From IMG/VR virus record IMGVR_UViG_3300044527_000952, positions 1 to 64,000 of that record: 64,000 nucleotides of DNA. One strand, given 5' to 3'. Under the pieces are notes generated by a model. That model searched no databases. It saw only the letters and a list, made by a program, of their open reading frames with translations, and was not told where the DNA came from. Both the position numbers and the translations under genes were made by a program. Of the stretch, positions 6,666 through 42,746 are shown in pieces (position 1 is the stretch's first letter; each line of letters opens with the position of its first letter). The DNA is from a virus.

Positions 6666-6697
6666 TATTTATTGAGTTAATTTATGATTATTAAATA
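6666..6697. promoter_or_regulatory. Divergent pair of TAAATA late-type promoters
   Basis: tattta at 6666-6671 (minus strand, 8 nt from ATG 6657) and taaata at 6692-6697 (5 nt from ATG 6703). Confidence 0.6.
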
Positions 6698-6702
6698 ATG
6701 TC

Positions 6703-9700
6703 ATGTATATTGAGCAAGAAGAACTAGATCGTAGAGAAGAATTATGGGAACAAGGTTATTGGGAAGTTCCTGAAGGTTTGGACACCACAGATTTTAATTT
6801 TAATTGGCGACCTGATCGCTTTGATCGTCCTTACATACACATATTTGGTACACAATGGCAACGTAGTGGTGGTCCACGATTCATTGTTCCAAATAATGAA
6901 GGTTATAAATTTCAATCAAACCAAATAGCAAAGAAATTGCCTAATATGAATAATTGGGTAATTAATAAAAAATATACAATTGAGTTTGATTATAGTTGGC
7001 ATCCTGATGACTTTGAACCACCTTATATTTGGACATTTGGTAATCAATATGTAAACGCATATGAAATGCCTACCGTTGAATATGTTGTAGAAGGTGCAAA
7101 AGAACGAAAATATATTACGGATATTATTGCAACATTAGTTAGTCGAGAAGATAATTGGAAAATATTGCACAATGTTCGAATTAATAAAGAAACGTTAAAG
7201 TGGTATCCTCATCCATATGAACCACCATATATTTATGTGTGGGGTAATCAATATTTAACGGCTGAAGAAATGCCTACTGTTGAGTATCATCAACCCACTG
7301 CTACAGAAAGAAAATACATACATGATTATCAATTTAAATTGATAGGGGATTCAAATAATTGGGTTATACATGAGGATATTGAAGATTTTCAAATTGATCC
7401 TTTATGGACCCCGCACCCACATGATCCACCTTATATCTATGTTTGGGGTAATAAATGGGTTAGTGGTAATATAAAACCAACGGTTGAATACCGTGTGCCA
7501 AATGCAGTAGATTATAAGTTTATGGGTGATAATATTCAATTAAAACCTGCAACAAAATGGAAGCAATTATTACCTATTGATACCACGTCATTTGATTTAA
7601 CATGGCGACCTAATCCTACTGAACCACCATACATTTATACTTGGGGGCATAAGTATGCTCCTATTGAAATTGAACCTGCGTTAGAATATTACGTAGAAGG
7701 TGCAACTGAACGAAAATATATGGTCGATCAGGTAGTGAAACTATTACCTGATATGGAAAAATGGAAAGTATTACTTCCTATTAATAAAGATAAATTTGAT
7801 TTAAGTTGGCGACCTGATCCACGTGAACCTGCATTTATCTATGTATGGGGCCATAAATTCTGTGACCCATCTATTGAGCCTGTATTAGAATTTCATGTAG
7901 AAGGTGCCACCGAACGCAAATACATGTCGGAAATTGTTGAACTATTACCTGACATGAATAATTGGCAATTATTACTACCAATTAATAAAGATAAGTTTGA
8001 TTTTAGTTGGAGACCCGATCCTACATCTCCACCTTATATCTATGTTTGGGGGCATAAGTATTGTGATGTTACGTTAGATCCTGCGTTAGAGTATCACGTA
8101 GTAGGCGCAACTGAACGCAAATATATGTCAGAAATTGTTGATTTATTACCTGATATGAGTCATTGGAAAGTATTAATTGCAGGAGCAGAGTTTAATTATG
8201 ATTGGCGACCTGACCCACGAGAACCCGCACTTATCTATGTATGGGGTAATAAATGGAATGATGCAGCCACCGAACCAACAGTAGAATATCACGTAGAAGG
8301 TGCAACTGAACGTAAATATATGTATGATAGTATTGCACTTTTGCCACAAGATACATCAAATTGGACTGTGCATAATGATGAAGATCGTCAAACGTTTGAC
8401 TTTAGTTGGCGACCAAACCCACATAGCCCACCACAAATTTACCAATGGAGCGATGGTGGACCAACCTATACAGTACAAGGTGGTACAGAAATTGTACTCA
8501 TCATGCGTGATGAATCGTATACATTAAAGAAAACACCACAATACTATATACAAACTACATTGGAAGATTTGATTGCTGAACATTTACATGAAGAATTTTG
8601 GGCATTAAATCCTGACATTGACTATTCTAATTTTGATTTTAATTGGAAACCAAATAGCGAAAACTTTAGACACATCAATGTATTTGGTAATGAACAATCT
8701 AAGAACACACAAACATATTATGTCAATGGTGTGATGTATGAACGTGGTTATCGTGAATATAATTATATTGAAAGTAGTAGCAAGCTTGATACTAAATTAG
8801 ATATCTTTTTTATTGACAAAAGCAATGCTTCTAGTAAAGAGAATTTACAACAGTTACAAACAAGATATCCAAATATCCAAACAACAAGATATCTTACAAA
8901 TTGGGTAGATACTATCTCACGCTGTGTTAAAAAAGCAAAGACAAAATTTGTATGGATTGTAAGTAGTGAATTAGACTATACCGAGTTTCAATTTGATTTT
9001 TATCCTGCACCATGGCAGGAAAATATGATACATGTTTTTGGTACACAATGGAGTCATTGGGGTAATACTTATCTAATCAATACCGAATTATGGGAATCAC
9101 AAATTGGCAATATTAAGATTGTTGAACATCTAAAGAATATAAACCATGTTCGTTCTAGAACAGCTACAATTGTAGAAAATGTATATGATACATTGTTGAT
9201 TAAGTTTTTAGGCACAGATTCTATTAATGCAAAGTATACAATAGATTATCGTGGTAGTTATCTTAATACTATTGATACTTGGTTAGAGCAAAACCCAACC
9301 ATTAAAGATAAGAAAAATTACAGTGCATGGGTATGTACTGACATTGTTGATTATAGTAACTTTGATTTTACATACCAATGTGATCCATTTCAACGTGAAC
9401 AAATTCATGTTTTTGCAAGTGAATTACATGGTATGAAACAAAAGTTTGGTGATACATTTTTATTAAATGTCAGTGAATATCTCAAGCATAGAAAAACATT
9501 TGAAAAGATAGAAGATTACCCACAAAAAGTAAACTATATTACGCATTTATATTCAACAAGGGTGCAACATCCTATTGTTGAACACAATGATGATACACAT
9601 GTTCAAAAAGTATTAGAGACTGATTTTAATAATTTTCCGTATATAGAATTTAAGAACAATGATTCGGTTGATAATATTACAATGATTCCTAGTTTATGGG

Positions 9701-13146: not shown

Positions 13147-13362
13147 GTGAATAATTATCATATAAGATATAATACACAGCATGCTGAATCTGATTTAGTA
13201 TGGCGCATTTTTGAAAATGGTACAGAACATTTAGTAAAAAACTTTCATATCACTGTGCCAATGTATGGTGAATCGACCATAGAAAATGGTATACAAAAAT
13301 GGAACGTAGCATGCAAAGGTGTAATGAAAATTGTTGATGGTGTAGCGATTATTGAACCTTAA
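13147..13362 (+). CDS. Hypothetical protein
   Basis: 71-aa ORF, start uncertain. Confidence 0.6.
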   Translation: MNNYHIRYNTQHAESDLVWRIFENGTEHLVKNFHITVPMYGESTIENGIQKWNVACKGVMKIVDGVAIIEP

Positions 13363-13394
13363 TACTTTACAGTTTATAGAAATAAATATATACT

Positions 13395-13699
13395 GTAAGT
13401 TATTGTTGTATGAAGTTGATGGAAAAGTATTGCGGACGGGGCTTCGATGCCCCCTGGTCCACCAAGTATGCTAGTACGGTAGCAATAGTGTGAGTGACTA
13501 CTGTCTTGTGCGAGTCAAGACCATACCTTATGGGCCAGACATGGTTTCGACGGGGTAACAAGTACTAATATGGACAACACGATAGGCGAAGAACGTAATT
13601 CTAGCAAATCAAATAATCGCAAATGACGATTACTTTGGAGAAGTTCGCTTAGCTGCGTAACCTCCACGAGGTAGGAAAGACCTTGTAACCAAACCCACC
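13395..13699 (+). ncRNA. ssrA: Two-piece (circularly permuted) tmRNA gene
   Basis: T-arm ggggc-ttcgat-gcccc and 3' acceptor strand ctggtcc-ACCA (ends 13464) lie upstream of the 5' end GGGCCAG..ggtttcgac (starts 13532). The 7-bp stem has G3:U. Tag frame 13619-13660 encodes ANDDYFGEVRLAA*. Outer ends are approximate. Confidence 0.92.
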
Positions 13700-13727
13700 A
13701 ATAGGGGCATTCGTGCCCCTATTTTTT
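13700..13727 (+). terminator. Rho-independent terminator of ssrA
   Basis: aataggggca-ttcg-tgcccctatt followed by a T tract. Confidence 0.9.
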
Positions 13728-16530: not shown

Positions 16531-17537
16531 TTGCAAGATGGCTACAAGGTCATATCCCTAAAAAAATATTACCATGGCAAATAGATATTGATACAACTAA
16601 TATTTGTAATCAAGATTGCTATTATTGTTACACAAGTGATTTTAGAGAACAACAACCTGTATATCAAACGTCTGAACAATACATTAAGTTAATAGATCAA
16701 TTGTACCATTGGAGTGAACATGATCCAAACACAATTGGTACCATATCAAATGTTATATTCAGTGGAGGAGGTGAGCCAACATTGTTACCACGTTACGAGG
16801 AAGTAATTGAGCATACGATTGATTGTGGTTATGTTGCTGCCATGAATACCAATGGAACAAAACTAGATAAGTTATTAACTATATCACCACATAAACTTAA
16901 ACGTATGGCATATATAGGGTTAGACATTGATAGCGCAATTGAATATACATATGAAGAAATTAGACGTAGTAAAATGACTCAGAGTCCTTTTAGTAAGGTT
17001 AAAGAAATAGCTAAAGAGTTAGGAAAAATGGGCGCACCTATTGATATCAAAGCATTGCTTATGCCACAAAATACAACTGATGATGAAATACGAGCACTAG
17101 TATTATATGCAAAAGAAGTTAATGCTAGAGAGATACATGCTAGACCTGTTGTATTAAATGAAGAATGTTTTACTGTTACACCTAGTATAATAAAAACATT
17201 TGAGCATTATGCGTCTATTTATAACGTTAAAGTTGATATAAGGTTGGCAAGAATAGGTGCACGAGATTATAAACAATGTCATCAATTTTTTCTATTTCCA
17301 TCATTCTCTGCTGATGGTAAAATTTATGTATGTTGTGAATATAAAGGTAGGAAAGATATTTGTTTAGGATCGTGGGTAGATGATGATTGGCGTGATTTGT
17401 GGTGTGGTGAAAAACACAAAGAAATATATAAACATTTCAAGACTGTTTTTTGCAGACCATGTAGACCAAACCACACCAATAATCAAATAGAATATGCCTT
17501 AAAAGATTATAACAAAGTATTACGTGGTTTTATATAA
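16512..17537 (+). CDS. Radical SAM protein with C-terminal SPASM/twitch domain
   Basis: CNQDCYYC, SGGGEPT, NTNG, C-terminal C..DGKIYVCC..CRPC. Confidence 0.9.
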   Translation: MEQYSLVARWLQGHIPKKILPWQIDIDTTNICNQDCYYCYTSDFREQQPVYQTSEQYIKLIDQLYHWSEHDPNTIGTISNVIFSGGGEPTLLPRYEEVIEHTIDCGYVAAMNTNGTKLDKLLTISPHKLKRMAYIGLDIDSAIEYTYEEIRRSKMTQSPFSKVKEIAKELGKMGAPIDIKALLMPQNTTDDEIRALVLYAKEVNAREIHARPVVLNEECFTVTPSIIKTFEHYASIYNVKVDIRLARIGARDYKQCHQFFLFPSFSADGKIYVCCEYKGRKDICLGSWVDDDWRDLWCGEKHKEIYKHFKTVFCRPCRPNHTNNQIEYALKDYNKVLRGFI

Positions 17538-18294
17538 GTGAAGATACTTGATCACTTATTGTAAATGCCCATGACTCTGTTACATATTTTATGTAATAAT
17601 CAAATGGAATATGGCAATAACCAACCATGCCCCATTCTTCACCCCATACATTTTTAGCTATAAAATATTGTTCATCAATGTTATAACCTACTAATACCAT
17701 AGTATGTAGTCCATAATATAACTGACCAAATTTTGGGTGTTTTACATGATAATTATCTTTATTATATCCAAGAAAATCTTCGTAAATGTTGATACCAATT
17801 ACAGGTGGTTTATTAACTGATATAGAATCTACTGCATCATTTATGTTATATAGTGAATAATATTCTGTGATATAACGATACTTTGCATCTTCGTAAGCAG
17901 CATCGCTAGGTTTTTCATCGACTTTAGTTAGGTCATAGGGCCATAATTTTTCGTCACATGCACCGTAGTAATATACTGCACGTAATCCGCTGCGTAATGA
18001 TATACTGTAGTCTTGTGCAGATACACCTTCTAAGTAACGTGCATTATAGAAAATAAACAAACTACTTAAATCCACATATTTGTCAGGATAATAATACATT
18101 AATTGCATTTGGTAAGAATCTGCAATAACTTTACCTACGCTAGTACCAATATAATTTGGATTTTCTATAATATCACTTTTACGTAAATCCATCGTTTCTC
18201 TTGTTGGAACACGTGGTTTTTTAAACCTAAAATCACGCTTATCGTATCTACTAGGTTTAACTGTAAACTTTTTAAGTAATTTAATATCAATCAT
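17530..18294 (-). CDS. Papain-like (C1A) peptidase homologue, catalytic Cys apparently substituted
   Basis: D.RDF, DLR, LSSLFIFYNAR, YGACDEKLWPY, HTMVLVGY, KNVWGEEWG..GY. The QxxxGSC site reads PNYIGTS. Confidence 0.8.
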   Translation of the reverse strand: MIDIKLLKKFTVKPSRYDKRDFRFKKPRVPTRETMDLRKSDIIENPNYIGTSVGKVIADSYQMQLMYYYPDKYVDLSSLFIFYNARYLEGVSAQDYSISLRSGLRAVYYYGACDEKLWPYDLTKVDEKPSDAAYEDAKYRYITEYYSLYNINDAVDSISVNKPPVIGINIYEDFLGYNKDNYHVKHPKFGQLYYGLHTMVLVGYNIDEQYFIAKNVWGEEWGMVGYCHIPFDYYIKYVTESWAFTISDQVSSLI

Positions 18295-19016
18295 ATTATC
18301 CACCAATTACCTGCACGTGAAACTAAGCTTACACTTTGATAAGGTGTACTAATAATATAATTTGCCTTATTATCAATTTTTTGAACACCCGTTGGAGTAA
18401 TTGTAATTTTACCACTACCTTGACCAAACTCATCTTTAATAGTATAAACACGCCCATCAAATCCTGATGGTAAAGTAACTGTTACAGCATTTGCAGAACT
18501 TACGCCAATGTACTCATCCATTACATCTGCGGTATAATTTGCTGATATGCCTACAACATTAATTAAATCAGCACCAAAACTACTAATAGTAATATTTCCT
18601 GTATTGGCTGTTAATGATATACCACTTCCTGCGGTTAGTTGTAATACACCTGTATTAGTTACCGTAAAAGAAGCAGCATAACCATTACTAACTACATTAG
18701 ATAACGCAATACCTGCACCATTAGAAGGAGTAACGCTAGTAACTACTAGTGCTCCATTTGCAGTTAAATTACCTGAAAAACTTCCATTATTACCAACTAA
18801 GTTACCACTTACATTTGCATTGTCTGCATTTAATGTAGTGATGTTACCTGTATTTGCTGTAAGTAAGTTACTAACATTAGCATTAAAGAATGTTACGTTT
18901 GCGTTAGGTGATAAATCTTGTGATAAAGAAATTACACCATTAGATACGTTGATGTAGTTTCCAACTTCTACAACACCGTAATCTGTTGTTGATCCAAAGG
19001 GGGCTAGGTATGACAT
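18291..19016 (-). CDS. Fibre-like protein (Asn/Gly-rich beta repeats, phage fibre C-terminal domain)
   Basis: ANV/GN repeats, GVLQLTAGSGISL, C-terminal YIGV..VTLP..IKDE..ID..GNWWII. Confidence 0.65.
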   Translation of the reverse strand: MSYLAPFGSTTDYGVVEVGNYINVSNGVISLSQDLSPNANVTFFNANVSNLLTANTGNITTLNADNANVSGNLVGNNGSFSGNLTANGALVVTSVTPSNGAGIALSNVVSNGYAASFTVTNTGVLQLTAGSGISLTANTGNITISSFGADLINVVGISANYTADVMDEYIGVSSANAVTVTLPSGFDGRVYTIKDEFGQGSGKITITPTGVQKIDNKANYIISTPYQSVSLVSRAGNWWII

Positions 19017-19028
19017 TTTTAATTTTCC

Positions 19029-19706
19029 TTATATAATATACCAATTTCCATCACGACAAAACAAATTAATGGTTTGCCATGGCACTTCCATAACGTAGGT
19101 TGTATTGCCATCAATCGTGCTGCCATCTGATGTAGCAATAGTAACTTTACGATTGCCTAATGGTGGACCCATTTCAGCTTTTATAATAATTTCGTCACAA
19201 GTTGCGCAATTTGCGGGTAATGTGATAGTAGTCGGTCTATCACTATTAACGCCAATATAGTAATCATCCATTTGAGCAATGTAGTCTTGTGATACCAAAA
19301 TTGCCTTGCACTCGCAACTACAGTTTCCAGGCGGTCCAATAGGTCCTTGAGGCCCTGGTTCGCCTGGAGGACCTTGCTCTCCACGTTCGCCAATCGGTCC
19401 TTGATCTCCCTTAGGTCCTTGTTCTCCACTTGGTCCAACCTCGCCTTGATCTCCTTTAGGTCCTTGCTCACCTTGCGGACCTGGGGGTCCAGGGGGTCCA
19501 GGTGGTCCTGGGGGGCATTTGTCACATTCATCTCCATTATTATTAATTATAACGGTATCGTTACCTGCACCTGTATCAATAGGTATTTTCCCACCTGCTA
19601 GCTGTAACTGTGCATTTTGTAATAGTTTTGGATTTACAGGTTTACCATCAGTTAATGCAAGTAATGCTTGTTGTAGTTCAATAAGTCTACGATCATGTCC
19701 GTCCAT
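19029..19706 (-). CDS. Collagen-like protein with the same C-terminal domain as 18291..19016
   Basis: About 20 GXY triplets flanked by Cys clusters (CDKC, CSCEC). C-terminal YIGV..ITLP..IDG..GNWYII. Confidence 0.85.
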
Positions 19707-19723
19707 AATAACTCCTTTTAAAC

Positions 19724-19759
19724 AAGGGCAACTTCCTTGTGAGAAGTTACCCCTGCCTT
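19724..19759 (-). terminator. Hairpin between the coiled-coil gene and the collagen gene
   Basis: agggcaacttc..gaagttaccc inverted repeat. Confidence 0.5.
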
Positions 19760-19778
19760 AGCACAACAATGTTATAGA

Positions 19779-20447
19779 TTAGCCAACGTTATTGCTTGTG
19801 GCTCTTTGACCAACACCTAATTGTGTTCCAAAGTTAACCATGCTATTACGAGCATCACTTAATTGACTACCAAAAGCTTGAATTTGTGACTGTAGAGCAG
19901 CCCACTGACCTTGATTTTGAGACTGTTCAGCGTGATATCTCCAATGACGGTGACCTTCACGCTCTTCAACGATTTCAGCATTACGCTCAATTAACATACG
20001 ATTTAAATCTTGTGTTTTTAAATCATTGATAAGTGCACGTGTTGCCTCAGCTTGATTGTCAATCTTGTCGCTCAAGTAGGTTGACTGTTGCTGTATAGCA
20101 ACTTGTGTCTTAAGTGCGTTGATTTCAGCATCTTTAGCTGCGCCCATGAAACCAGCAACCATGGCCTGTTGTGCTGAAATAATTTGAGCACGAATATCTT
20201 GTGTGTCACGAGCTACATCAAAGAACCTTGCGTCAAGACGATCAGCATTACGATCTACATCTGATGTAACTCTTGCTGTTGAATCTGAGACACGCTGATT
20301 AATATCAAATCGTGCGTCTTTGATAGCACCTTGTGTGTTATAGTCGCCTTTTAGGCCTTCTTTAACGATTTCATTGGTATGCTCTACTGCTTCACGACGA
20401 ATATCGCTATGTTGATCGGCCAAATAATTTGTATCTACTTCTGCCAT
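19779..20447 (-). CDS. Gln/Ala-rich coiled-coil protein of unknown function
   Basis: Strong SD (aggag), amphipathic helical periodicity, motif I..Q.EATRALI..L...L. Confidence 0.75.
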   Translation of the reverse strand: MAEVDTNYLADQHSDIRREAVEHTNEIVKEGLKGDYNTQGAIKDARFDINQRVSDSTARVTSDVDRNADRLDARFFDVARDTQDIRAQIISAQQAMVAGFMGAAKDAEINALKTQVAIQQQSTYLSDKIDNQAEATRALINDLKTQDLNRMLIERNAEIVEEREGHRHWRYHAEQSQNQGQWAALQSQIQAFGSQLSDARNSMVNFGTQLGVGQRATSNNVG

Positions 20448-20533
20448 TTTTTTCTCCTAGGTTAATGAAGATTCCAATCTTCAATAGTACTTAAGAGAAT
20501 TTTCGGCGTTATTTTCTATAATTTAGGACATAT

Positions 20534-21247
20534 CTATACATGAGTATAGCTTTTACCAAAAATAGCCAATTGTGTTCTATTTCTTACGCCAAATTTTTTT
20601 AAAATTGTACCTATATGTAATTTCACTGTACTTTCACTAATATTTAAAGTTTTAGCTATCATTTTATTACTCGCACCACGATTAGTTACCATGTCAAGAA
20701 TTTGATTTTGCCTTGAAGTTAATTTAATTGTATTTTTACTTATAACCACTTTAGTAACTTTATTCTTTTTAGGATGTAACAAATCGTGGGTATGTTTGGG
20801 TATATGATATTTGTTTGCTAATAAATCGTTAATAGATTCTTTTGCCTCTTGAGGCGTAAAACCATAAACTCTTGCAATAAACCCTGAAATATGAATATTG
20901 CTAATAGCATCTCTTATAAGTTTTAAATCAGTATTTTTTGTTATCGCTGCTACTATTTTTGTTTTTGAATTTATACTTCTAATTAATGTTGCTAATGTAT
21001 GAATAATTTCAAACATACCAACACCTGCCATATTATAAAGATCTTCAATATCAATTGATACCCACGCAAAATTATTTTTTTCGTTAATGATGTATGAATA
21101 AGATTCTTGTATAGTGTTTACTCTAACAACATTAAAATTAAAATACTCAATTAATTTCATGTTTTCCTCACATGTAGTATGGTGAGGTCTTGTTGAGCTA
21201 ATAACAAGTATATTGATTTTTTGTTGGTTCTCTGACGCTAGCATCAT
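20534..21247 (-). CDS. LuxR/NarL-family transcription regulator with degenerate receiver-like N-terminus
   Basis: LTSRQNQILDMV..GASNKMIAKTLNISESTVKLHIGTILKKFGVRNRTQLA. Confidence 0.9.
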   Translation of the reverse strand: MMLASENQQKINILVISSTRPHHTTCEENMKLIEYFNFNVVRVNTIQESYSYIINEKNNFAWVSIDIEDLYNMAGVGMFEIIHTLATLIRSINSKTKIVAAITKNTDLKLIRDAISNIHISGFIARVYGFTPQEAKESINDLLANKYHIPKHTHDLLHPKKNKVTKVVISKNTIKLTSRQNQILDMVTNRGASNKMIAKTLNISESTVKLHIGTILKKFGVRNRTQLAIFGKSYTHV

Positions 21248-21272
21248 AATTTTCCCTTGATGTTACTGCTAT

Positions 21273-21345
21273 TAGTACTTAAGTAAAGTATAGACCTTAA
21301 TTTACGTACTAATGTCTATACCTATACTTGTACATACCTATACTT
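21273..21345. promoter_or_regulatory. Putative operator/promoter array upstream of the LuxR gene
   Basis: Direct repeat atacctatactt (21318, 21334). Inverted repeat aagtatagac/gtctatacct (21286/21314). tagtacttaag (21273) is also present at 20485. Confidence 0.6.
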
Positions 21346-21435
21346 CGATCCGTTTAGTTTTTATACTTAAACTTTGAACGGTTTATTGTCACAGAAGATC
21401 GATTTATTTCCAAGCGAATTAAGATAAATAATATT

Positions 21436-22083
21436 ATGAAAATTCAAGAGATTATGTTACTTAATGAGGGTGTTAATGACCCTAACATTTTTAAGGCTGT
21501 GTTTATGGCAGGTGGCCCAGGCTCAGGCAAAAGCTTTGTTGCCCGTAAACTTGGCTTGCAAGCAGCAGGACTACGTACCATTAATAGTGATGATGCTTTT
21601 GAATTTCTTCTTAGAAAACATCAACTTGATCCCAAAATGCCACCTGCAGAACAAGAAAAGCGTGACATTGTAAGACAACGTGCTAAACAAATGACCAAAG
21701 AACGTGAAAAGAACTATTTCCAAGGTCGTTTAGGTGTTATCATTGATGGTACTGCTAAGGATGCTGAAAAAACTGCTAAGACAAAAGCAGGTTTAGAAGC
21801 ACTTGGGTACCAAACCATGATGGTGTTTGTCAATACTAGCTTACCCGTTGCATTAGAACGTAATCGCCAACGTGAACGCAGCGTACCTGATGAGGTTGCT
21901 AAACAAGCCCATGCTGAAGTACAAGTGGGTAAAGATGCACTACAACAAGTATTTGGCTCAAATTTTGTAGTTGTTTTAAATGATATAGAGCCTGATTTCA
22001 AACCTGCTTACAAAAAAGTACAAAGCTTTTTAAGGCAACCACTTACTCCAACCGCACAACGTTGGATCAACCAAAATAGCTAA
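21436..22083 (+). CDS. Zeta-toxin/AAA_33-like P-loop kinase
   Basis: GGPGSGKS, INSDD, IIDGT, ALERNRQRERSVP. Confidence 0.85.
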   Translation: MKIQEIMLLNEGVNDPNIFKAVFMAGGPGSGKSFVARKLGLQAAGLRTINSDDAFEFLLRKHQLDPKMPPAEQEKRDIVRQRAKQMTKEREKNYFQGRLGVIIDGTAKDAEKTAKTKAGLEALGYQTMMVFVNTSLPVALERNRQRERSVPDEVAKQAHAEVQVGKDALQQVFGSNFVVVLNDIEPDFKPAYKKVQSFLRQPLTPTAQRWINQNS

Positions 22084-22175
22084 TCTATCCAATTTGTTTG
22101 CAAAATTATAAATAATGTGTGAATATTATGTCTTGGACATATATTCATTTTTCACACACAGAAAGGAAAAAACAA

Positions 22176-22715
22176 ATGAAAACAGTAGGTGATAAACTCA
22201 CACCATTCGCAATTACAGGGGTAAAACCCCACCAACCTGAAGATACATTCTTCACAATCACAGAAAAAAGTTTTGAAGGTAAATGGAAAATTATCGTTTA
22301 CTATCCAAAATCATTTACTTTTGTTTGCCCGACAGAAATTGTCGGATATGATAAGCTATATCATGATTTCGAAGATCGTGATGCAGTTCTACTTACAGGT
22401 TCTATTGATAATGAATTCTGTGCTTTAGCTTGGCAAAATAATCATTTAGACCTTAAAAAAATCAAACATATCCAATTTGCTGATACACAAAGAGGTGACT
22501 TAAGTTTGGTTGAACAATTAGGAGTATTTTACAATACTGCTGGCGCTCCCTTAAGAGCAACATTTATTATTGATCCTGATAATGTTATTCAACATGTTAC
22601 TGTTAATAATTTAAATGTCGGACGTTCACCTGAAGAAACTTTACGAATTTTAGACGGATGTCAAACTAATGAGCTTTGCGCTTGTAATCGTGCTGTAGGG
22701 GGAGAAACTTTATAA
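22176..22715 (+). CDS. ahpC: Peroxiredoxin AhpC
   Basis: YPKSFTFVCPTEI, LRATFIIDP, VGRSPEETLR, ELCACNR. SD before ATG 22176. Confidence 0.93.
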   Translation: MKTVGDKLTPFAITGVKPHQPEDTFFTITEKSFEGKWKIIVYYPKSFTFVCPTEIVGYDKLYHDFEDRDAVLLTGSIDNEFCALAWQNNHLDLKKIKHIQFADTQRGDLSLVEQLGVFYNTAGAPLRATFIIDPDNVIQHVTVNNLNVGRSPEETLRILDGCQTNELCACNRAVGGETL

Positions 22716-22754
22716 ATCAGTAGGGCAGACATAAATACTCTAGAAGGAGTGTTT

Positions 22755-23507
22755 ATGTCACATCGTATACCTTACACCTATTATGTATTTCATAGACCAA
22801 CAGGCTTAAAATATTATGGCTCGAAATATGGAAAAAATGCAAATCCTAACACTTTTTGGAAACCTAATGGGTATTTTACATCATCTAAAAAAGTCAAAAA
22901 ACTTATTATAGAATATGGCATCGATTCATTTGACGCAGAGGTTAGGAAAATTTTTGATAGTCCTGATAAAGCTATAAATTATGAATACAAATTTTTAAAG
23001 AAAGTGAAAGCTTTATTAAAAGATGATTGGCTAAATGATAATTATGGAGGAGAAAAATTTAGAAATATTGGTCCTGCTAGTGAAAAAACTTTGCAAGCAC
23101 AAAGAAATAAAAAACAATCACTTGAAAGTAATATTAAAAGATCTAAAGCTCTTAAAGGAAAAGAAGTATCAAATGAAACTAGAGAAAAAATGTCAGTGGT
23201 GCAAAAAAATCGTTCACCTGAAAAAGAAGAGGAAAGACGAGGTAAAATTAGAGCAAAAGCAATAGGTCGTGGGCACAGTGACGAGACGAAATCTAAACTA
23301 TCAAAAATATTTACTGGTACAAAGTGGATCAACAATGGTACTAATCAAAAAACAGTTAGGTTCGATGAATTAAACCAATATTTAGATTCAGGTTGGAAAT
23401 TAGGAAGGATACTTACTATAGTGACATGTCCACATTGTGGAACTAGTGGTGTAAACTATAATTTAACAAGAAACCACTTTGATAAGTGTAAACAGAAAAA
23501 AATTTAA
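22755..23507 (+). mobile_element. Free-standing homing endonuclease (GIY-YIG/Seg-like with NUMOD3 repeats)
   Basis: YTY..KYYG..YFTSS..E..WLN catalytic-like N-terminus; SNETREKMS and HSDETKSKLS repeats; KWINNG; CPHC. Confidence 0.8.
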
Positions 23508-23641
23508 GGATTAGAACATGTTCAATTATGAATCTTTGTGGGATTTATATGAAATGAAATTTATCATAATTTTTCTATCAATAGTTGTAACCATTGTTCT
23601 TGCAACATGGTTATATGATAAGAAAAAGGATAAAGATAATC

Positions 23642-23767
23642 ATGATTGAACTTATTTGGGCACTTGGTGCAATTATTTTAATTGATGTAGTATTAGGTGG
23701 TGAAAATGCGGCTGAACCATTGTTACAAGAATATATAGGAGAATTTAAAAATGTCAGCATGGGTTAA
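23642..23767 (+). pseudogene. Internally deleted TerC/YjbE-family remnant
   Basis: 41-aa ORF MIELIWALGAIILIDVVLGGENA-AEPLLQEY. It matches the TerC N-terminal motif IILIDxVLxGDNA but lacks the rest of the protein. Confidence 0.6.
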
Positions 23768-24266
23768 TGTATTAAAAGAAGGATTGCCTGATTACGCAAA
23801 AGATATACGTCTAAATTTAGATGCAGTAATTTTACGTTCAAGCTTAGATCCTATCGTAGCTGAAGGATGTGCGCTAGCTGCAGCAGTTGCAACAGGTAAT
23901 GGTGGTATTGTGGGTAGAATTTATCCTTCAATAACTGATGAAGTAGAACGTGATGCAGCAATGGCAGCAGCAAGCCTTATGGCACAAAATAATGTATGGT
24001 ATCCATATGTTGAAATGGCAGAAGATGAAAATTTAAAAGGTTTACCTGCTCAGTTACGAATGAATGCAATATTATCACACGGTGGTACTACTAAAGTACG
24101 ATTTGAAGCGTATAGTTTGTGTGCTAGTATTGTTGGCAAGTGTCACTTTTGTGTAAAAGCACATTATGAAACACTTAAAAAAGAAGGCTACACTGTGGAA
24201 CAATTACGTGATATTGGACGCATTGCAGCAGTGATTAACGCAGCATGTAAAATATTAGTTGGGTAA
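23751..24266 (+). CDS. ahpD: Alkylhydroperoxidase AhpD
   Basis: PDYAKDIRLNL, MAQNNVWY, LRMN, SIVGKCHFCVKAH. Confidence 0.92.
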   Translation: MSAWVNVLKEGLPDYAKDIRLNLDAVILRSSLDPIVAEGCALAAAVATGNGGIVGRIYPSITDEVERDAAMAAASLMAQNNVWYPYVEMAEDENLKGLPAQLRMNAILSHGGTTKVRFEAYSLCASIVGKCHFCVKAHYETLKKEGYTVEQLRDIGRIAAVINAACKILVG

Positions 24267-24269
24267 TTA

Positions 24270-25448
24270 ATGAGAATAGCAATTATTGGCGCAGGTATTG
24301 CAGGAGTAGTACCTGCATATTTTTTGTCCAAAAATGGACACGATGTTACAATTTTTGAGCAAGAACGTTACGCAGCAATGCGCACAAGTTATGCTAATGG
24401 TGGACAAGTTAGTGTAAGTAATAGCGAAGTATGGACAACATGGGCTAATGTATTAAAAGGATTAAAATGGATGCTAAAAAAAGATGCACCATTGCTTATC
24501 CATCCATCATTAGATCTTGATAAGATAAAATGGATTACAAAATTCCTAGCTAATACTGCTAGTCGAGTATATAAACAAAATACTATTGAAACCATTAAGC
24601 TTGGTCTAGAAAGTAGATTGTTATATAAACAAATTATAAAAGATGAAAATTTAGAATTTGATCAAAGCAATTGTGGTATTCTACATATTTACAAAGATGC
24701 AAAATACCTAAATGCTGCTTTTGATGCGCAAGATATCTATGAACCACATGGGTGTGAGTGGAAAATGCTTGTCAACCATGATGATATTCTTGCAATCGAA
24801 CCTAATCTTAAAGATATGGGTGGTTTAATTGGGGCAGCATGGACTGCTGACGATTGGGTAGGAGATATTCATAAATTTTGTAAACATTTATTGGATGTTA
24901 TACGTTTAAAATATAATGGATGTGTTTCATTCAATCATGGCATTATAGACCCTAGAGCATTAACAGAGAATTTTGACAAAGTAATAATTGCTGCAGGAGT
25001 TGAAAGTGTACAACTTGCAAAAGAATTTGGTGAAAATTTACCAATTTACCCTGTAAAAGGTTATAGCATTACCATTGATGCAGAAGATGTTAAATCATAT
25101 AAAGCAATGCCGAAAGTCAGTTTGTTAGATGATCAAGCAAAAATTGTCAGTGCAACACTAGGTACAAAATTACGTGTGGCAGGTACTGCTGAATTGTGTG
25201 GTTATAATCGTGACATTACAAGAAGTAGAATTGAACCATTGTTAAATTGGGTAAATGAAAACTTCCCTAATGTGGACACAAGCTGTTATAGTAGTTGGGC
25301 ATGTTTGCGACCAATGACTCCAAATATGATGCCAATCGTGCGTGAAAGTAAAGTTAAAAATATTTACTATCATACAGGACATGGACATTTAGGTTGGACC
25401 ATTAGCCCCGCAACAGCATTAAATTTAGTGAAACAACTTGAAAATTGA
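24270..25448 (+). CDS. dadA: D-amino acid dehydrogenase (FAD)
   Basis: GAGIAG, TSYANGGQ, IYPVKGYSIT, LRVAGTAE, LRPMTP, GHGHLGWT. Confidence 0.88.
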   Translation: MRIAIIGAGIAGVVPAYFLSKNGHDVTIFEQERYAAMRTSYANGGQVSVSNSEVWTTWANVLKGLKWMLKKDAPLLIHPSLDLDKIKWITKFLANTASRVYKQNTIETIKLGLESRLLYKQIIKDENLEFDQSNCGILHIYKDAKYLNAAFDAQDIYEPHGCEWKMLVNHDDILAIEPNLKDMGGLIGAAWTADDWVGDIHKFCKHLLDVIRLKYNGCVSFNHGIIDPRALTENFDKVIIAAGVESVQLAKEFGENLPIYPVKGYSITIDAEDVKSYKAMPKVSLLDDQAKIVSATLGTKLRVAGTAELCGYNRDITRSRIEPLLNWVNENFPNVDTSCYSSWACLRPMTPNMMPIVRESKVKNIYYHTGHGHLGWTISPATALNLVKQLEN

Positions 25449-41148: not shown

Positions 41149-41174
41149 TCTAATTTTACTCCATAAATAGTTTC

Positions 41175-42746
41175 ATGAATATGCAAAATGGTGTGCAACT
41201 CATTAAGAATCCTTATGAACTTACATCGTTCAAGGATGATAAACAATTACAAGACTTTTTAAAATGCTGTAATCCTGATACAGGTTATCTATATTTTATG
41301 GATAACTTTTTTATGATACAACACCCTACACAAGGTAGTATGTTATATCACCCATGGGCTTATCAAAAACGATTAATAGAAACATACCATAACTATCGTT
41401 TTAGTATATCTCTAATGCCACGCCAAAGTGGTAAATCTACAAGTGCAGCAGGTTATTTGCTATGGTATGCAATGTTTGTACCTGACAGTACGATTCTTAT
41501 TGCTGCACATAAGTATGCAGGTTCGCAAGAAATAATGCAACGTATACGTTATGGTTATGAGAATTGTCCACTACATATTAAAGCAGGTGTTGTAACTTAT
41601 AACAAAGGATCACTAGACTTTGAAAATGGTAGTAGAATTATTAGTGCTACCACTACAGAAAATACAGGTCGTGGTCTTTCTATATCGTTATTATATCTTG
41701 ATGAGTTTGCATTTGTTCGCCCAGGCATTGCTAAAGAATTTTGGACCTCTATCGCCCCTACTCTAGCAACAGGTGGTAAAGCAATTATAACAAGTACCCC
41801 AAATAGTGATGAAGATCAGTTTGCTATAATTTGGAAAGGTGCAAATAAAACACAGGATGAATACGGTAATACTACTGAATTAGGTGTTAATGGTTTTAAA
41901 GCGTACAAGGCACATTGGAGCGAACAACCAGGTCGTGATGAACAATGGGCTGAATCTATGAAAGCACAACTTGGTGATGAACGATTCAGGCGTGAAATTG
42001 GTTGTGAATTTGTTATCGCTGATGAAACATTGATCAATCCATTAATACTTACCACACTAGAGGGTATGGAACCCATTGAGCGTATGGGTCAAGTACGTTG
42101 GTTTTCTAAACCACAAAAAGGTAATATCTATTGTGTTGGGCTAGATCCAAGCTTGGGTACAGGTAGCGATCCTGCTGCTATACAAATATTTGAAGCAAAT
42201 ACTACTAAACAAATTGGTGAATGGAAACATAATAGAACTACCATACCTGAACAAATTAAACTATTAGCCAAAATAAATGAATACATTGTTGATATAACCA
42301 ATGAACCTAATAATTTATATTACAGTTTAGAAAATAATACTATTGGTGAAGCAGCACTTATATCATTAGCAGAATATGGCGAAGAAAATATTAAAGGCAC
42401 CATGCTAAGCGAACCTAAACAAGTAGGTGCAACTAGACGTTATAGAAAAGGGTTTAATACCACTCAAAAAAGTAAGTTAGCAGCATGCAGTAAACTAAAA
42501 AACTTGATTGAAAGTGGTAAAATGTCGCTGAGAAGTAATGCACTAATCACAGAATTAAAGTCATTTGTAGCTGCTGAAGGTAGTTATGCTGCAAAAATAG
42601 GTGAAACTGATGACTTAGTAATGGCAACATTATTGGTTATACGTATTTTACAACATCTTCAAAACTATCATAGTGACCTAGATACGCACATTAGAGATCA
42701 CAGCGAATACATTGAACCCATGCCATTTATAATGACATTAAGTTAA
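41175..42746 (+). CDS. Terminase large subunit (T4 gp17-like)
   Basis: PRQSGKST Walker A, LYLDEFAF Walker B, ITSTPN, GLDPSLG, DDLVMA. Confidence 0.95.
   Translation: MNMQNGVQLIKNPYELTSFKDDKQLQDFLKCCNPDTGYLYFMDNFFMIQHPTQGSMLYHPWAYQKRLIETYHNYRFSISLMPRQSGKSTSAAGYLLWYAMFVPDSTILIAAHKYAGSQEIMQRIRYGYENCPLHIKAGVVTYNKGSLDFENGSRIISATTTENTGRGLSISLLYLDEFAFVRPGIAKEFWTSIAPTLATGGKAIITSTPNSDEDQFAIIWKGANKTQDEYGNTTELGVNGFKAYKAHWSEQPGRDEQWAESMKAQLGDERFRREIGCEFVIADETLINPLILTTLEGMEPIERMGQVRWFSKPQKGNIYCVGLDPSLGTGSDPAAIQIFEANTTKQIGEWKHNRTTIPEQIKLLAKINEYIVDITNEPNNLYYSLENNTIGEAALISLAEYGEENIKGTMLSEPKQVGATRRYRKGFNTTQKSKLAACSKLKNLIESGKMSLRSNALITELKSFVAAEGSYAAKIGETDDLVMATLLVIRILQHLQNYHSDLDTHIRDHSEYIEPMPFIMTLS

Follow-up and report, generated by a model that had tools for sequence, protein, structure and literature searches.

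A candidate self-regulated accessory fibre cassette, with a new family of helical proteins, in an uncultured jumbo phage

Accessory fibres affect how phages find their hosts and attach to them, and almost nothing is known of such fibres in giant phages without cultured representatives, although natural waters commonly contain them. Several described systems offer points of comparison. The XD1 domain, common to T4 gp9 and gp10 and corresponding to residues 79-175 of the CBA120 tailspike TSP4, has been assigned an unclear role or that of a spacer (PMC8825819), and in gp9, gp10 and TSP4 it is a module of trimeric phage fibre systems. In phage Pa223, gp52 forms a short trimeric capsid spike on the three-fold axes, built of an N-terminal anchor of ~40 residues, a triple beta-helix shaft and a C-terminal knob of ~90 residues, for which an accessory role in adsorption has been proposed (bioRxiv 10.1101/2025.06.11.659172). 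Outside phages, the nap of the Bacillus exosporium (BclA) has a collagen stalk that ends, at the C-terminus, in a beta-sandwich knob responsible for trimerisation, and its expression is under a GerE/LuxR-family regulator late in a developmental programme, while CsgD and VpsT, in which a LuxR/GerE helix-turn-helix (HTH) is joined to a receiver-like domain without a phosphorylation pocket, control genes for extracellular fibres. LuxR-family proteins are also carried by phages, and receptors of the ARM81ld type have an autoinducer-binding domain and control lysis and lysogeny (PMC6456758). Here, we describe a five-gene cassette in a stretch of 64,000 nucleotides (positions 1 to 64,000 of IMG/VR virus record IMGVR_UViG_3300044527_000952, hereafter the window), in which a LuxR-type regulator precedes genes for a long helical protein, two short knobbed fibres and a papain-family protein.

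The 64 kb of the window open a virus record of 93 kb, whose completeness of 26% (CheckV) implies a genome of ~350 kb. The window encodes a large terminase, UvsX, SSB and a ligase; the terminase shows ~51% identity with its counterparts in PA5oct-like Pseudomonas jumbo phages and 50% with that of Sinorhizobium phage Phosso. The source is an uncultured jumbo phage, distantly related to PA5oct, and comparison at the DNA level revealed no resemblance of the region to any cultivated phage. An initial annotation, made by a model from the letters of the window and a list of its open reading frames (ORFs), had singled out five co-oriented minus-strand genes as a self-contained module, and all five were recovered as ORFs. 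Minus-strand ORFs are scarce in the 93-kb record (16 of 161), and five of these 16 make up the cassette. Its genes and signals, in the direction of transcription, are the following:

21248..21435, minus strand, control region upstream of the LuxR gene, divergent (sequence; matrix match; 5-mer enrichment)
20534-21247, minus strand, LuxR/GerE HTH regulator (Pfam GerE, 3.9e-17)
20485..20505, minus strand, promoter-like motif of the coiled-coil gene (conserved in related loci; best matrix match)
20463..20486, minus strand, predicted 5' leader hairpin (folding with shuffles)
20454-20458, minus strand, AGGAG ribosome-binding site of the coiled-coil gene (sequence)
19779-20447, minus strand, 222-residue helical (coiled-coil) protein (ORF; AlphaFold2)
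19726..19752, minus strand, 3' hairpin directly after the coiled-coil gene (covariation)
19029-19706, minus strand, collagen fibre protein (Pfam Collagen, 9.4e-11)
18291-19016, minus strand, second fibre protein (ORF; alignment of the shared knob)
17530-18306, minus strand, ORF of the papain-family protein, likely coding sequence 17530..18294 (Peptidase_C1, 1.6e-10; orthologue starts)

The cassette is conserved as a unit well beyond the window. All eight related jumbo-phage contigs (50-400 kb) first examined carry the LuxR, helical and collagen genes in identical order, accompanied by the second fibre in seven and by the protease in five, with small extra ORFs interleaved and with flanks that differ. 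A profile search then gathered 49 viral-contig loci, and in every one a gene bearing the shared C-terminal knob comes after the coiled-coil gene, so that co-conservation, which the initial annotation had proposed to check by synteny, bears out its self-contained module both in the first set (8/8) and in the larger one (49/49); the protease is present in 31 of the 49. The LuxR gene is found in 18 of these loci, all among the closer relatives of the window, and where present it lies directly upstream of, and co-oriented with, the coiled-coil gene. Distant loci keep the cassette without it (31/49 have no adjacent LuxR gene), and the small ORFs upstream of the cassette in distant LuxR-less loci contain no HTH domain. 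The regulator is a clade-specific addition to an older cassette core. Across the cassette, identity is highest for the helical protein (53-75%) as against 31-37% for the regulator. A literature search found no published description of such a cassette.

For the coiled-coil protein, AlphaFold2 predicts one unbroken helix over residues 6-165, ~24 nm in length, followed by a shorter helix and a disordered tail. Its hydrophobic residues recur with a period of 3.64 residues, which corresponds to 11/3 (a hendecad repeat), at a power that exceeds the 95th percentile of shuffled sequences but not the shuffle maximum; insertions and deletions in the N-terminal half of the family measure 11, 22 or 44 residues. 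Homologues amount to 690 members in a 90%-clustered database and to 167 clusters at 50% identity, and among the matches listed the alignment reaches the C-terminus of the protein or comes within a few residues of it. This C-terminal tail, MVNFGT..GVGQ..TSNNV, is nearly invariant and the most conserved segment of the protein, with an N-x-G core that is kept even in remote family members; neither the tail nor the N-terminal motifs recur in any other protein of the 93-kb record. Searches of Pfam and PHROGs with the single sequence and with all 26 family members gave no match above threshold, nor did searches of the PDB by sequence and by profile, or Foldseek on the model. No family match was obtained by tblastn against 50,697 phage records, and no relative in a scan of 185,579 prokaryote genomes. 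As far as these comparisons reach, the protein belongs to a new virus-only family with an 11-residue repeat, an abundant structural family (167 clusters) with no known relative. Matches to Phasin (PF05597; 17.7 bits against a gathering score of 28.8) fall below the cut-off, as they do in 12 of the 26 family members (best E 7e-04), as do Apolipoprotein matches in two of the 26, and in ten remote members one sub-threshold Apolipoprotein match is the only trace of a Pfam domain; these matches probably reflect the periodicity. Two remote members (P0377 and P0393) carry a long Gly/Phe-rich low-complexity N-terminal extension before the helical core and the tail.

The two fibre genes that follow encode short proteins with a common C-terminal end. 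The collagen protein consists of an N-terminal helix, a CxxC cluster, 20 uninterrupted GXY triplets (Pfam Collagen, 41.8 bits against a cut-off of 27.2; 9.4e-11), a CxCxC cluster and a knob at residues 132-225, and both Cys clusters flanking the collagen are conserved in orthologues. In the second fibre, a MSYL...GVVxVG motif at the N-terminus precedes a shaft of Asn-rich repeats and a knob of the same type; this protein finds no sequence match in Pfam, PHROG or the PDB. Neither it nor the protease has a close homologue in cultivated phages, the matches there being a Thermocrinis virus fibre (4e-3), a hit in Burkholderia phage FLC9 and an 'endolysin' with 25% identity. The shared domain that the initial annotation had read from the two C-termini is borne out by 36% identity between the two window knobs and by columns (D, YIGV, TLP, K, G, D, W) conserved across 25 sequences. 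Its 94 residues are modelled as an eight-strand, two-sheet beta-sandwich with a predicted local distance difference test score (pLDDT) of 94, and the best structural matches superpose with a root-mean-square deviation of ~2 Å over 82-91 of the 94 residues (Foldseek E 3e-05 to 1e-03). They are the C-terminal domain of the Acinetobacter phage Solidus tailspike (gp83; Z 11.9), a Klebsiella phage KP1 baseplate protein (Z 11.7), residues 79-175 of CBA120 TSP4 (Z 11.4), the C-terminal knob of the Pa223 capsid spike (Z 10.4) and the Mu tail fibre (Z 9.8). Judged by its model, the knob is an XD1-type beta-sandwich, which phages also use in proteins of the baseplate, tailspikes, tail fibres and capsid spikes.

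The likeness to these systems has its limits. In the XD1 adaptors, the domain is part of a large multi-domain protein, whereas the cassette knob ends two short stand-alone fibres in which no XD2 or XD3 docking domains were detected, and by sequence the knob family is confined to the cassette. The anchor, shaft and knob layout of the second fibre is that of Pa223 gp52, but the two share no sequence similarity, and Pa223 has no rod partner, collagen paralogue, protease or dedicated regulator. The exosporium architecture of which the initial annotation was reminded appears to be an analogy of layout only, in the collagen stalk with its knob and the GerE/LuxR-family regulator: the knob has the phage XD1 fold with no close C1q or BclA match, neither a BclA nor a C1q chain is among the structural matches listed, exosporium anchor proteins were not seen, though no search aimed at such partners was made, and the cassette belongs to a phage with a betaproteobacterial-type transfer-messenger RNA (tmRNA).

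A knob profile search of the 93-kb record retrieved only the two cassette fibre genes. A complete relative of 400 kb has its long tail-fibre genes near 44-48 kb, ~285 kb from the cassette at 330 kb. Because the tail-fibre genes are distant and the knob family is confined to the cassette, the cassette fibres are likely to be accessory rather than the main adsorption apparatus. The knob of the collagen protein is 64-76% identical among the homologues listed, a high value for a receptor-binding tip that suggests a conserved partner. In the complete 400-kb relative, the locus L011 (G003:43500-48500) is a run of large tail-fibre genes (1007 aa and others) whose products start with MPYxxNKxNG. The C-terminus of the main tail fibre, which by eye resembled the knob, was rejected as a relative after a profile comparison that was not significant (probability 4.9%).

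The regulator at the head of the cassette carries a C-terminal GerE HTH (62 bits against a cut-off of 23.5; 3.9e-17) that is closest to NarL (1.3e-08 for the NarL C-terminal domain; 4e-18 for the profile against full-length NarL) and also matches VraR and VpsT. Its N-terminal half has no Response_reg match in Pfam, yet the structural neighbours of its Atlas model are REC+GerE proteins, at template modelling scores of 0.5-0.6, and include CsgD/VpsT-like proteins. In an alignment of eight orthologues, this half is invariant only at L88, I111 and L157; the position of the phospho-acceptor Asp is occupied by D, H, Y or a gap, and there is neither a DD pair nor a conserved Lys. No Pfam match to an autoinducer-binding domain appeared at E up to 0.1. 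The initial annotation had seen no sensor kinase in the window, and the same holds for the window's record and four relatives (one of them a 400-kb record, 100% complete), in which no HATPase_c kinase was found; in each of these five records, the regulator is the sole GerE gene. It is an orphan NarL/LuxR-type protein with a degenerate receiver-like N-terminal domain. The proposal that the cassette responds to a signal therefore finds no support, the receiver-like half being without a conserved acidic pocket, phospho-acceptor Asp and Lys, the five records without such a kinase and the distant relatives without LuxR altogether. Compared with CsgD and VpsT, with which it shares the HTH and a putative receiver-like domain without a phosphorylation pocket, the cassette regulator has no conserved W[FLM][TS]R motif for cyclic di-GMP (alignment by inspection), is phage-encoded, has a regulon apparently limited to its own cassette and would act at a putative site that resembles a NarL half-site. 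With the ARM81ld receptors, it has in common a phage-borne LuxR-family HTH, but it combines a degenerate receiver-like domain with no Autoind_bind match and stands at the head of a structural cassette, in a jumbo phage that appears to be lytic.

Upstream of both the regulator and the coiled-coil gene, the initial annotation had noticed the same 11-mer, CTTAAGTACTA, and in the whole window its exact copies are indeed limited to positions 20485 and 21273. The count alone is not significant; what lends weight to the motif of which the 11-mer is part is its conservation ahead of the coiled-coil gene in related loci. The motif of this gene consists of a pyrimidine run, TAAGTA (20488-20493 in the window), 2-3 bases and TAT(G), and it precedes the helical gene in nine of the nine first loci. 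TAAGTA stands before the helical gene in 17 of 18 distinct LuxR-bearing loci versus none of ~20 LuxR-less loci, an association that is not phylogenetically independent, as the two groups are clades. A position matrix built from nine coiled-coil-gene promoters has its top two matches in 93 kb at the coiled-coil gene (19.6) and in the region upstream of the LuxR gene (16.3). All four intergenic TTAAGTA sites of the 93-kb record lie in the two control regions of the cassette, and in five full records the pattern YYYNNTAAGTAN{1,3}TAT gave only chance-level matches apart from the cassette sites. The promoter-like motif is essentially private to the cassette, which agrees with the earlier view of a module with its own regulator; a dedicated regulator and a private promoter for a fibre operon are unusual among virion structural genes. 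None of the genes for the collagen protein, the second fibre and the protease has a separate promoter motif. A look-alike site in the 400-kb record, considered as a further member of the regulon, was rejected, as it lies inside the 1007-aa tail-fibre ORF.

In the control region of the LuxR gene, CTTAAGTACTA occupies 21273-21283, and its palindromic core is TACTTAAGTA. A 16-nt unit is repeated in tandem at 21313-21344, and an imperfect inverted repeat of 18 nt lies at 21271-21313; the tandem repeat and several inverted ones are built on an AAGTA/TACTT element. This element is the most enriched 5-mer in the control regions of nine loci, with 40 occurrences observed against 7.8 expected from a background that is mostly coding sequence. 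As a lead only, TACTTA fits TACYYM, the half-site published for NarL. The same region carries the TAAATA promoter of the opposite-strand kinase gene. TAAATA occurs ≤90 nt upstream of 36 of the 161 ORFs in the 93-kb record, often at exactly 4-8 nt (often 5) before the ATG, for example at 21417-21438, 41160-41177 and 6690-6705, which suggests a T4-late-like promoter yielding leaderless or near-leaderless mRNAs. TAAGTA looks like a weakened form of this general element, and a promoter of this kind may need the regulator to fire. Natural variants also exist, as the LuxR-bearing loci L026 and L027 have TAAATA instead of TAAGTA at the position of the coiled-coil promoter. In the LuxR-less clade (L037, L040, L045-L053), another conserved leader lies ~110 nt before the coiled-coil gene. 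Three of its segments (CCAGACGA / TCGTCTG / CGTCTGG) are complementary to one another, and the leader looks like an alternative-pairing RNA switch or attenuator.

Two RNA hairpins enclose the coiled-coil gene. The predicted 5' leader hairpin begins 2 nt after TAAGTA in the window and is followed by the AGGAG ribosome-binding site; a stable stem 1-5 nt after TAAGTA is predicted in all ten loci folded, with sequences that differ from locus to locus (shuffle z -2.8 to -8.1). On the 3' side, a stable hairpin is predicted right after the coiled-coil stop codon in every distinct locus folded, and the strong ribosome-binding site and downstream hairpin described at the outset are thus both present. 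Across six loci, the apical C-UCACRAG-G of the 3' hairpin is invariant and nine of 11 stem pairs show compensatory changes, with 97% of cells able to pair and none of 500 shuffles reaching the score. Where the loop motif CTCACRAGG occurs elsewhere in the five full records, no hairpin is formed, and Rfam has no family for either the 5' or the 3' element. The 3' hairpin is probably a leaky terminator or a stabiliser, and a protein-binding site is possible. Behind it, the collagen, second-fibre and protease genes are separated by 12-nt gaps or overlap. From these signals, the cassette appears designed to make a single product in great abundance and, by read-through, small amounts of those encoded behind it, and the favouring of the coiled-coil gene over the fibre genes behind the hairpin fits the one abundant subunit with minor components that had been anticipated. 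A hairpin with an invariant loop may in this way set the ratio of the components.

The last gene of the cassette encodes a papain-family protein, with a Peptidase_C1 match of 41.9 bits against a cut-off of 20.7 (1.6e-10) and a match to xylellain (PDB 3ois) over residues 21-239, nearly its full length (1.5e-23). By orthologue comparison, the ATG at 18294 is a likelier start codon than the TTG at 18306. The protease had been described as altered, and the alteration falls on the active site: the catalytic Cys is replaced by Ser and the oxyanion Gln by Pro (ENPNYIGTS versus EDQxxLGSC in orthologues). The remainder of the window copy is intact, and H197 and N215, the catalytic His and Asn, are invariant in 13 sequences. 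ENPNYIGTS also occurs in a 96%-identical relative (16 member sequences, 10 contigs), and relatives at 62% and 58% identity have the canonical Gln-Cys-His-Asn set; to judge from these residues, the lineage of the window keeps a pseudo-enzyme or a Ser-based variant. Xylellain and other bacterial C1A peptidases thus resemble the family in the His and Asn of the triad, and the orthologues in the complete Gln-Cys-His-Asn set, but the window copy departs from xylellain in having Ser for Cys and Pro for Gln, in having neither a long pro-region nor a signal peptide and in its place inside a phage fibre operon. An obvious signal peptide was found in none of the cassette proteins.

Taken together, gene linkage, folds, RNA elements, the privacy of the motif and its co-occurrence with LuxR point to an accessory, self-regulated virion fibre cassette of an uncultured T4-superfamily jumbo-phage clade, a reading to which we give about an even chance. 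Binding by the regulator, the amounts of the products, their location on the virion and the role of the protease are the parts of it that we infer. The orphan NarL-type regulator would act without phosphorylation, binding the AAGTA/TACTT repeats and activating the two weak TAAGTA promoters in front of its own gene and of the coiled-coil gene, TAAGTA being a one-base variant of the common TAAATA element of the phage. The terminal hairpins would stabilise the coiled-coil mRNA, from which the ~24-nm helical rod protein would be made in large amounts, and read-through of the 3' hairpin would yield the collagen and beta-helical fibres, as well as the protease, in smaller amounts. The C-terminal tail of the rod and the N-termini of the fibres may dock the parts to each other, to the capsid or to the tail, giving the virion an extra set of short knobbed fibres, and the cysteine knots around the collagen could lock the trimer once the particle meets oxidising water. 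The protease may process a component of the cassette or act on the host surface, and would have become a pseudo-enzyme or a Ser-based variant in this phage lineage. If the regulator does gate fibre production, the cassette would illustrate how a phage that appears to be lytic can regulate the composition of its virions. A bolder version, in which a phosphorylation-independent switch decides in each infection whether to add the rod-and-knob coat, so that a host-state cue and positive autoregulation at TAAGTA produce a conditional virion dimorphism, strikes us as improbable. The parts of the cassette are small and expressible in E. coli, which makes these hypotheses testable without phage culture.

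Several observations weigh against the fibre-cassette reading. No cassette protein is on record as a virion component; no cultivated phage carries the coiled-coil family (tblastn against 50,697 phage records), nor was any relative of known function detected for it. For a receptor-binding tip, the conservation of the knob is unusually high. The LuxR-less relatives show that the regulator is dispensable for the cassette, its binding to the motif is deduced from co-occurrence in one clade and a resemblance to the NarL heptamer, and the transcription machinery of the phage itself may simply use TAAGTA as a promoter element. This last point leads to the alternative that these are ordinary late structural fibre genes with TAAGTA as a variant late promoter, the LuxR-type protein regulating host genes or nothing nearby. 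It would account for the position of TAAGTA, which is that of the common TAAATA (upstream of 36/161 genes), for the TAAATA of the LuxR-bearing L026 and L027 and for the 31 of 49 loci with no adjacent LuxR gene. We nevertheless regard it as unlikely, in view of the two best motif matches in 93 kb falling at the gene of the regulator and at its neighbour, the co-occurrence of LuxR and TAAGTA (17/18 versus 0/~20), the five-fold enrichment of AAGTA/TACTT in both control regions and the invariable placement of LuxR, when present, immediately upstream and co-oriented.

Other alternatives concern what the proteins build. The 11-residue periodicity and the sub-threshold Phasin and Apolipoprotein matches would fit an amphipathic protein that coats surfaces no less than a fibre, and the coiled-coil protein could be an abundant phasin- or apolipoprotein-like coat or an intracellular scaffold, on granules, membranes or the assembly site, with the fibre genes merely co-transcribed. 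The 11/3 hydrophobic period, the indels in multiples of 11, the matches themselves (Phasin in 12/26 members; Apolipoprotein in 2/26 and one remote relative) and the expression signals for very high abundance all suit such a coat; yet every match lies below its Pfam cut-off and may stem from the periodicity alone, the stripe of hydrophobic residues is narrow, the link to a knob-bearing fibre gene holds in 49/49 loci and the most conserved part of the protein is a C-terminal tail that resembles a docking peptide, which together make this explanation quite unlikely. It is highly improbable that, as the coat idea of the initial annotation would have it, the rod and a disulfide-forming collagen instead cross-link after lysis into a matrix or occlusion-like material around or between virions, aiding their persistence or aggregation. 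Conserved Cys clusters do flank the collagen and occur in the knob of the collagen protein, one very abundant component stands beside minor ones, and the lack of evident signal peptides agrees with release by lysis, but none of the proteins is homologous to a coat or matrix protein, the knob has the fold of virion fibres, the collagen stretch, at 20 triplets, is short and cystine knots are equally expected in a virion fibre exposed to oxidising water.

The surroundings of the cassette provide some further observations. On the plus strand, its flank (21436-25448) encodes a zeta-toxin/AAA_33-type kinase, AhpC, a GIY-YIG/NUMOD3 homing-endonuclease-like protein, an AhpD-like protein (an assignment by eye only) and an FAD oxidoreductase; in L003 and L007, the cassette likewise has AhpC and the AhpD-like gene at its flanks. 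The phage encodes a permuted two-piece tmRNA at 13353-13725 (plus strand; Rfam RF04321, 118 bits; beta_tmRNA RF01850, 107 bits), whose betaproteobacterial type hints at a betaproteobacterial host. In the LuxR-less relative L023 (4904-5674, plus strand), and also in L025, a gene for AmoC, subunit C of ammonia/methane monooxygenase (Pfam 2.7e-106), lies directly upstream of the coiled-coil gene and represents a possible auxiliary metabolic gene and a clue to the host.

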